A stretch of DNA of 4,936 bases from a virus (lineage: Duplodnaviria; Heunggongvirae; Uroviricota; Caudoviricetes). Numbering within the stretch: the first letter of the stretch is position 1; each line of letters begins with the position of its first letter. Made by a program: the position numbers and the translations under genes. Below, piece after piece: positions 154 to 432 of this stretch. The stretch lies in IMG/VR virus record IMGVR_UViG_2645727676_000016. One strand, written 5' to 3'. The notes under the pieces were generated by a model, which saw only the letters and a list, made by a program, of their open reading frames with translations, made no database searches and had not been told where the DNA came from.

Positions 154-432
154 ATGAATAAACACACATTAACCCGTATTTCAGAGGAAGCTTTTAACGA
201 GCTTACCAGAATTAAACGAGCTACTAACTTGCCTCATCAAACTGTAATGCAACTTGCAATTGCTAAAGAGGTTACTGAGTCGGATTTACTTAAATATCCA
301 GTCTCTAAAGGTCGTAAACACATCCGAATTACTCAGGACGCTTTAGATACTTTGAAGGGACTTAACGGCTTTAAAATTGATATCGCCCGACTATTGAGTA
401 TTAAGATTCACAAGTTAGCAATGGGGGTTTAA
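154..432 (+). CDS. small hypothetical protein (92 aa), possibly a ribbon-helix-helix-like DNA-binding protein with two repeats
   Basis: ATG 154 with AGAGGA at 141-146 (7-nt spacer); 92 codons to TAA 430-432. N-terminal half (TLTRIS / EEAFNELTRIKRATN / LPHQTVMQLAIAKEV) and C-terminal half (HIRITQ / DALDTLKGL / FKIDIARLLSIKIHKL) each read as a short beta-strand followed by two helices, the layout of Arc/CopG/MetJ-type RHH domains. Pattern recognition only. Confidence 0.6.
   Translation: MNKHTLTRISEEAFNELTRIKRATNLPHQTVMQLAIAKEVTESDLLKYPVSKGRKHIRITQDALDTLKGLNGFKIDIARLLSIKIHKLAMGV

Follow-up and report, generated by a model that had tools for sequence, protein, structure and literature searches.

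Introduction

Arc and Mnt of phage P22 are the classical dimeric ribbon-helix-helix (RHH) repressors, made of separate chains that are obliged to dimerise, and they act at the divergent immI promoters of the phage. TraY of the F plasmid, a relaxosome accessory protein, acts at its own promoter. In TraY, as in all DndE proteins (DNA phosphorothioation), each chain contains two tandem RHH units, so that the monomer is the equivalent of a canonical RHH dimer; the TraY monomer binds DNA and plays an architectural, DNA-bending role at oriT, and DndE is defined by its pairing with a DndD/CxC ABC ATPase (PMC10853773). A trefoil knot is present in MJ0366, VirC2 and DndE, and absent from AvtR (PMC5425179). 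Natural single-chain double-RHH proteins are few (TraY, DndE, VirC2, AvtR and MJ0366), and one of 92 residues would be among the smallest.

At the level of the mobile element, PLE of Vibrio cholerae, a satellite of the virulent phage ICP1, carries a large serine recombinase, a repeat-bearing non-coding region and ICP1-related genes.

Here, we analysed a stretch of DNA of 4,936 nucleotides (hereafter the window), which is 99.7% identical to Escherichia coli strain 20 (NZ_CP064847.1) and corresponds to positions 20001-24938 of the 45-kb locus L001. It encodes a 92-residue protein, RHH2, which, as predicted with good confidence, represents a new and narrow family with the known single-chain double-RHH architecture of the TraY/DndE type. 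RHH2 is of moderate interest taken alone, and this interest is raised by its context: the gene belongs to the core of an island with links to Felix O1-type phages, which are in wide use for typing and therapy.

RHH2 is a conserved gene adjacent to p185

The features of the operon that fall in the window are as follows.

1-153, + strand: 3' end of p185, the 185-aa gene that comes first in the operon (annotated CDS L001 19596-20153)
142-147, + strand: Shine-Dalgarno sequence GAGGAA of RHH2, within the 3' end of p185, read from the sequence and kept in other loci
154-432, + strand: RHH2, gene of the predicted single-chain double ribbon-helix-helix protein, 92 aa, ATG start
432-931, + strand: variable cassette made of a 71-aa gene (432-647) and a 95-aa HNH endonuclease gene (644-931; HNH_3, E 1.8e-8)

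The open reading frame at 154-432 is a real gene. In Escherichia, Shigella, Salmonella and Citrobacter its family amounts to 95 protein clusters, every one of them named 'hypothetical protein', and pairwise dN/dS ratios range from 0.08 to 0.37 (Nei-Gojobori, 21 locus pairs among seven full-length copies), with dS reaching about 2 at most, a value attained by the Citrobacter copy. The family is narrow, because an exhaustive profile search over 1.84 billion representative proteins returned 11 proteins only, all of them members of the RHH2 family or fragments of it. No match passed the threshold in Pfam, PHROGs, NCBIfam or PADLOC, or among the PDB sequences, the last of these being searched with the single sequence as well as with the profile, and no phage homologue was detected by tblastn against 50,697 phages. 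The protein is basic.

RHH2 had been taken in an initial annotation of this DNA as the gene heading its operon, a position that in fact belongs to p185. Indeed, the TAA stop codon of p185 (151-153) abuts the ATG of RHH2 at 154, and a strong promoter, P1, lies about 50 nt upstream of p185, from which it follows that RHH2 is the second cistron; it is predicted to be translationally coupled to p185. P1 (L001 19517-19545, outside the window) is a near-consensus sigma-70 promoter, TTGACA-17-TAGTAT with a TG. The two genes are adjacent in all 13 loci examined, including those that carry the 49%- and 39%-identical homologues. No family, phage or structure match was obtained for p185, nor did any toxin or defence model match it, and its AlphaFold2 model is of low quality (pLDDT 41, pTM 0.22).

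Back-to-back with P1 lies a leftward promoter, PL (TTAACA-18-TATAAT, L001 19509 to 19480), which is followed by a long leader and by the gene of a conserved hydrophobic protein of 56-60 aa. This protein consists of one hydrophobic helix (MVNLPPELGSPDVWAGGGVGLLAGLLLRYVLVRVLVVF...) and is encoded at L001 19130-19300 (- strand), L002 11064-11240 and L006 9058-9240; its gene ends at a terminator and is absent from the RefSeq annotation. It could act as a small toxin or in lysis.

On the downstream side, the stop codon of RHH2 overlaps the next ATG, and the 71-aa gene in turn overlaps the HNH gene. This pair is present in most E. coli islands, absent in L010 and rearranged in L005, and in the Citrobacter locus L006 its place is taken by a 128-aa gene whose C-terminal segment is HTH-like (L006 10279-10665). 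The distribution among loci is that of a mobile cassette, and not that of a constant partner of RHH2. An HNH/terminase-type packaging role, suggested by the adjacent HNH gene, was rejected because the cassette differs among islands.

RHH2 is predicted to carry two RHH units in one chain

The elements assigned by DSSP on the AlphaFold2 model of RHH2 delimit the following segments, with residue numbers first and window positions in brackets.

163-261, + strand: predicted RHH unit 1, with strand 4-10 (163-183), helix 11-24 (184-225) and helix 28-36 (235-261)
277-294, + strand: predicted linker helix between the two RHH units, residues 42-47
313-426, + strand: predicted RHH unit 2, with strand 54-60 (313-333), helix 61-70 (334-363) and helix 77-91 (382-426)

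RHH2 very probably adopts an RHH fold, as judged from this model (mean pLDDT 89.4, pTM 0.81), which was obtained from a shallow and narrow alignment of 21 sequences of 61-93% identity; three of the five models reached a pLDDT of about 89, and the two others scored 44-47. The succession of elements reproduces the strand-helix-helix pattern that had been noticed in both halves of the protein. The model displays what defines the RHH superfamily, strand-helix-helix units and an antiparallel two-stranded ribbon lying on four helices, with both units contained in one polypeptide that is the equivalent of a dimer. No C-terminal helical extension is present, as the model stops at helix 77-91 (of 92 residues), the second one of unit 2; in length, this helix exceeds the equivalent one of unit 1.

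Three fold searches gave TraY, DndE, a permuted single-chain Arc, AvtR, MJ0366 and VirC2 as top matches. In particular, the top list of Foldseek against all PDB chains contained only TraY, DndE and AvtR (TM 0.55-0.61 and probability 0.96-0.98, with E values of only 0.07-0.1), and against viral models Foldseek matched double-RHH proteins of archaeal viruses. The idea of one chain with two RHH-like repeats is thus supported by the confident AlphaFold2 prediction and by the convergence of the fold searches on double-RHH proteins, structure prediction being one of the checks that the initial annotation had called for. Such an arrangement is uncommon, as had been stated, yet it has precedents in TraY and in all DndE proteins.

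At the sequence level, RHH2 has no above-threshold match to a curated RHH family in Pfam, NCBIfam, PHROGs or the PDB sequences, DndE and VAPB_antitox appearing below threshold only. The two halves of the protein align in the expected register (R8-T18 with R58-K68, RIseeAfxEL versus RItqdALdtL) when compared profile against profile, with P 8.5e-4 over 11 columns only. This alignment and the DndE matches are consistent with the predicted fold, although as signals they are weak. G-x-S/T/N is the inter-helix loop motif of RHH domains, and the inter-helix loop of unit 1 reads T24-x-L26-x-H28 in RHH2, and T-G-L-S-H in variants.

RHH2 is distinct from the described double-RHH families

TraY of the F plasmid (PDB 9f0x chain E) is the closest structural match of RHH2. 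Sequence similarity between the two is nevertheless absent (hhalign probability 0.4%), no match to the TraY family was found, and the island contains neither a relaxase nor an oriT context; the assignment of RHH2 as a TraY homologue was consequently rejected. DndE (PDB 7x4e, 5wtu and 4lrv) shares the single-chain double-RHH architecture. The scores of RHH2 nonetheless remain under both cut-offs, for TIGR03184 (E 0.0031, 17.9 bits, cut-off 71.85) as well as for Pfam DndE (13.6 bits, cut-off 25), the latter giving sub-threshold matches in 13 of 23 family members. No DndD/CxC ABC ATPase or other dnd gene lies near RHH2, whose neighbours are p185, the variable cassette and genes for a tape measure, a Dit-like protein and a recombinase, and an identity as DndE was discarded as well.

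AvtR and related double-RHH regulators (PDB 4hv0) belong to filamentous and rod-shaped viruses with archaeal hosts, unlike RHH2; AvtR has no sequence similarity to it and is a weaker structural match than TraY or DndE. Sequence similarity is likewise absent for Arc and Mnt, which differ from the one-chain RHH2 in their obligate dimerisation, and for the engineered single-chain Arc (PDB 1u9p). Judged by the features that define them, the TraY, DndE and antitoxin families do not include RHH2, the case of the antitoxins being taken up below.

RHH2 is a core gene of a chromosomal island

RHH2 resides in an 11.4-kb insertion (L001 16256-27700), delimited by comparison with the empty yciI-tonB site of K-12. 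Its two ends carry a 13-bp direct repeat (CAATGACCCTTGA), in overlap with the start codon of tonB. The island encodes, in order, a 221-aa protein, a small serine recombinase (in most copies), an ORF-free stretch of 1.7-2.5 kb, p185, RHH2, the variable cassette, a 107-aa protein, a 560-bp non-coding stretch, a 234-aa and a 71-aa protein, a tape-measure protein (PF20155), a Dit-like protein (PF21821) and a 505-aa large serine recombinase. With this large serine recombinase of its own and its defined ends, it is an integrative element in the manner of satellites.

Matches to the window were found in 481 of 5,426 complete E. coli genomes (~9%), and were chromosomal every time. The two genes p185 and RHH2 are constant in every version of the island (11-13 kb) seen here. 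The ORF-free stretch is also conserved (L001 17040-19596, L002 9689-11584 and L003 9864-11491), and it includes iteron-like tandem repeats (four of GGTCGGTTAAGAA in L001) and a duplicated unit of ~50 nt; it is possibly an origin or a packaging signal copied from a helper. A related island from a Hafnia background, L014 (12,866-bp contig, Logan SRR10873785), assembles as a circle with a 30-nt terminal overlap, at most a hint of helper-dependent induction, packaging or transfer. In L014, the tape-measure/Dit block lies beside the small serine recombinase and has the opposite orientation with respect to the p185-RHH2 operon. This contig may represent an excised form and/or an invertible segment.

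The Dit-like protein of the island is 81% identical to a Felixounavirus protein, with matches in 303 phage records, and the Felixounavirus gene is located directly 3' of the tape-measure gene, in synteny with the island. The tape-measure proteins of phage and island are ~28% identical over their full length, and only the first ~85 nt of the island gene (window 3074-3164) are close to the phage gene as DNA (86% to phage garuso). This mosaic suggests recombination with helpers, or selection that keeps certain interaction surfaces. Moreover, short blocks of the island's ORF-free stretch recur in the terminal region of phage PHB11, which is ORF-free as well. For the Hafnia-type island, it is instead a Felix O1-like phage of Hafnia that provides the match, in the corresponding region and in the Dit gene (70%). 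No phage homologue was found for RHH2, p185, p107 or p234.

The Dit gene, the short DNA blocks and the TGTTA dyads described in the next section are genes and cis elements derived from a specific helper, as in satellites, and the comparison indicates that the island is probably a satellite or an anti-phage island of virulent Felix O1-type phages. In the literature searched, the coverage of which is incomplete, no satellite tied to these phages has been described, and the island itself is apparently undescribed. Like PLE, it is a small chromosomal island associated with a virulent myovirus, and it has its own large serine recombinase, repeats in a non-coding region and genes related to those of the helper. 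In contrast, no common genes were detected between the two, and the island carries homologues of the tape-measure and Dit proteins of its presumed helper. If it is a satellite or a defence element, RHH2 is an obvious handle on its regulation.

Conserved TGTTA dyads mark the island promoters and the phage genome end

Two further features of the window are concerned here.

1486-1501, + strand: TGTTA-N6-TGTTA dyad (TGTTACCAATCTGTTA), a candidate binding site, ending 8 nt before the -35 of P2
1510-1538, + strand: promoter P2, TTGACA-17-GATGAT (CATAAT in most loci), a paralogue of P1 by shared architecture

P1 and P2 have the common architecture GATGTTA-N5-nTGTTAAAAA-N3-TTGACA-N17-(-10)-TGTATATAT. 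The exact TGTTA-N6-TGTTA dyad occurs in three copies in the 45 kb of L001, against 0.14 expected, a number that none of 100 shuffles reached, and each of the three is located at P1 or P2. The first extends from -59 to -44 of P1, 8 nt before the -35, and also covers the -35 of PL; the second is inverted and lies at about +6 to +21 of P1; the third extends from -59 to -44 of P2, again 8 nt before the -35. In seven further loci, the sole copies of the dyad are at these same three positions, and an eighth locus has it at two of the three; the position at P2 is kept in eight of nine loci of the E. coli/Citrobacter type. The dyads are thus non-random and conserved. Across loci, their half-sites are fixed and their spacers variable, a combination that is typical of a protein site made of two subsites one helical turn apart. 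Reading the TGTTAA upstream of P1 as merely the -35 of PL fails for the identical dyad of P2, where there is no leftward promoter, and for the inverted dyad downstream of P1.

The same dyads are found in the phage. In the PHB11 record, nine of the ten copies fall within positions 1-170 and 87,200-87,540, and the right half holds seven against 0.26 expected. They are absent from the Hafnia-type island and from its phage Zyzzx. More broadly, the ORF-free terminal region of PHB11, of ~1.6 kb (L011 1-800, L012 41700-42553), contains dense (C)TGTTA(A/G) repeats, many of them spaced by 11 bp, and the equivalent region of Zyzzx (record 48214-50278) has CTTTACA/CTGTAAAG repeats instead.

The residues of RHH2 that would face the DNA follow a comparable distribution. 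When outward and core-facing residues of the strands are assigned by the RHH alternation rule, the outward positions 6, 8, 54, 56 and 58 (L, R, R, H and R) are invariant in all 22 sequences of the dyad-bearing lineages, including the 49%-identical one. In the 39%-identical homologue, encoded by an island of the Hafnia lineage with no dyads, they are N, K, T, S and Q, whereas the presumed core-facing positions 5, 7, 9, 57 and 59 are kept. This correlation is the pattern expected if the ribbon reads TGTTA half-sites, although it comes from a single lineage contrast in which the helper changes too.

Possible roles of RHH2

We propose that strands 4-10 and 54-60 of RHH2 pair as an antiparallel ribbon, which conventional RHH proteins obtain only through dimerisation, and that a single chain would read one DNA subsite in the major groove in the fashion of TraY and DndE. 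Produced as the second cistron of the P1 operon (p185, RHH2, variable genes), RHH2 would bind as one monomer per TGTTA half-site, which would bring two chains per dyad onto the same face of the helix (11-bp phasing). Occupancy of the dyads would then set the levels of the p185-RHH2 operon and of the leftward small-membrane-protein gene, because the dyads flank P1 and cover the -35 of PL, as well as those of the P2 transcript. RHH2 may possibly also act on helper DNA, since Felix O1-type phages carry arrays of these dyads at their genome end. This control would be analogous to that exerted by Arc and Mnt, and by TraY at its own promoter.

The components of this proposal do not carry equal weight. 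RHH2 probably binds DNA, and a role as regulator of its module, already put forward in the initial annotation, is plausible. Among possible targets the TGTTA dyad is the likeliest, and a better operator candidate than the palindromes at 1856-1936, yet its assignment is tentative and we would lean somewhat against it; autorepression is doubtful. The explanation as a whole, a double-RHH monomer reading TGTTA dyads at P1, PL and P2, stands in our view slightly short of an even balance. Were it correct, RHH2 would be a simple and asymmetric module for reading DNA, one for which a concrete candidate site is at hand, and the dyads provide a testable link from the island promoters to the helper genome end. 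At its most far-reaching, RHH2 would be the switch of an undescribed satellite or anti-phage family acting on virulent Felix O1-type phages, a monomeric repressor of P1, PL and P2 that is titrated by, or targets, the dyad arrays of the helper end, thereby coupling induction to infection and possibly blocking helper replication or packaging; this we consider a long shot.

Several observations speak against a dyad-reading RHH2. Two of the five AlphaFold2 models are low, and there is no above-threshold sequence family; the change of strand residues could be simple divergence, being one lineage contrast; and other small proteins of the island (p185, p107 and the 71-aa proteins) might be the regulators. 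Furthermore, the dyads are also present in the helper-type phage and missing from the Hafnia-type island together with its phage, so that a phage-encoded protein could bind them.

One alternative, which we regard as unlikely, is that RHH2 is not primarily a transcription factor but a TraY-like architectural factor of the ORF-free region, where it would bend DNA and recruit the helper replication or packaging machinery, or the large serine recombinase. A role as recombination directionality factor for this recombinase was considered and set aside; the known factors of serine integrases act by protein contact, and not by RHH DNA binding. TraY, the closest structural match, works in this architectural way at oriT (PMC10853773), and the island possesses an ORF-free region with four iteron-like tandem repeats of GGTCGGTTAAGAA, in which CTGTTAA is observed seven times against 0.67 expected, and which shares short blocks with the phage end. 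The island also has no recognisable replication initiator or small terminase, and the small terminase of Felix O1 has not been recognised either (PMC3185647). However, the exact, phased dyads are at promoters only, with none in the ORF-free region, and the lack of both sequence similarity to TraY (by hhalign) and a relaxase or oriT context in the island weakens the parallel.

To a similar degree improbable is that the TGTTA dyads are read by a protein of the helper phage, by which the island would sense infection, RHH2 acting at some other operator or at helper promoters and its link to the dyads being a coincidence. The concentration of nine of ten PHB11 copies in the terminal ORF-free region of the phage would fit, as would the way in which the dyads track the helper lineage, disappearing from Zyzzx and from the Hafnia-type island alike, and an activator or an UP element would be well placed from -59 to -44. 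Yet there is no phage homologue of RHH2 to suggest a common reader, the dyads vanish in precisely the lineage in which the five strand residues predicted to point outward have changed, and the dyad at about +6 to +21 of P1 occupies a position of the repressor type.

Less probable still is that the RHH fold is a prediction artefact and RHH2 some other small helical protein. The shallow and narrow alignment, the two AlphaFold2 models with a pLDDT of about 45, the modest Foldseek E values against the PDB and the lack of an above-threshold sequence family would all be compatible with an artefact, but the fold searches converge on double-RHH proteins. Finally, a partner or antitoxin that neutralises or chaperones p185 or another island protein, with DNA binding as a secondary property, is very improbable: RHH2 is strictly adjacent to p185 and predicted to be coupled to it in every locus, and four of 23 family members give weak VAPB_antitox matches (best E 0.0079), but the model ends with helix 77-91 and has no toxin-binding extension, p185 matches neither a toxin nor a defence family, the downstream gene is variable, and a monomeric double RHH does not have the dimer-plus-tail organisation of antitoxins, so that RHH2 was not classified as an RHH-type type II antitoxin.

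RNA structures and other conserved features of the window

Downstream of the dyad and P2, the window contains a further conserved element.

1859-1933, + strand: conserved RNA hairpin in the leader of the 234-aa gene, stem 1859-1879 / 1913-1933 (inverted repeat, RNAalifold)

AT-rich palindromes at 1856-1936 had been pointed out as candidate operators. The repeats are real, with 28-nt arms that are 86% complementary, but their interpretation as operators was abandoned in favour of a covarying RNA stem. The RNAalifold consensus over eight loci has 21 pairs, of which eight show compensatory double changes, and its G-U wobbles work on the + strand RNA only. The element at 1859-1933 is therefore best explained as a putative cis-acting RNA structure, and not as a protein operator. 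Its loop contains a stretch, CTCTTCTAAG (1894-1903), whose complement, CTTAGAAGAG (1951-1960), lies at the ribosome-binding site of the 234-aa gene, and together the hairpin and this complementarity suggest translational control of that gene.

A search against Rfam matched nothing in the island. Between positions 1510 and 1740 of the window, P2 precedes a conserved hairpin (GGGAAGAGCAACTCTTCC) and a block that is invariant, GAAAGGTGCAATGCTTTTCG, and an intrinsic terminator closes the stretch (1710-1740). The stretch from P2 to the terminator is a candidate non-coding RNA of ~190 nt, with no Rfam match. A little upstream, at 1406-1483, lies a conserved hydrophobic micro-ORF of 25 codons (MTLIVLWTLLGLFVGCWVGNAVNKN), which is absent from the RefSeq annotation and whose ATG overlaps the stop codon of the 107-aa gene (TAATG).

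Lastly, a module of ~100 nt occurs twice in the same orientation, at 944-1062 of the window and at L001 19316-19405, with ends (GACGCTCTCAATCGCATTCT... and ...CTCGTTACAGAGCGATTGAgGAGG) that form an inverted repeat. One copy is located between the HNH and 107-aa genes, and the other in the leader of the leftward small membrane protein, to which it would be antisense; regulation by RNA-RNA interaction is possible.
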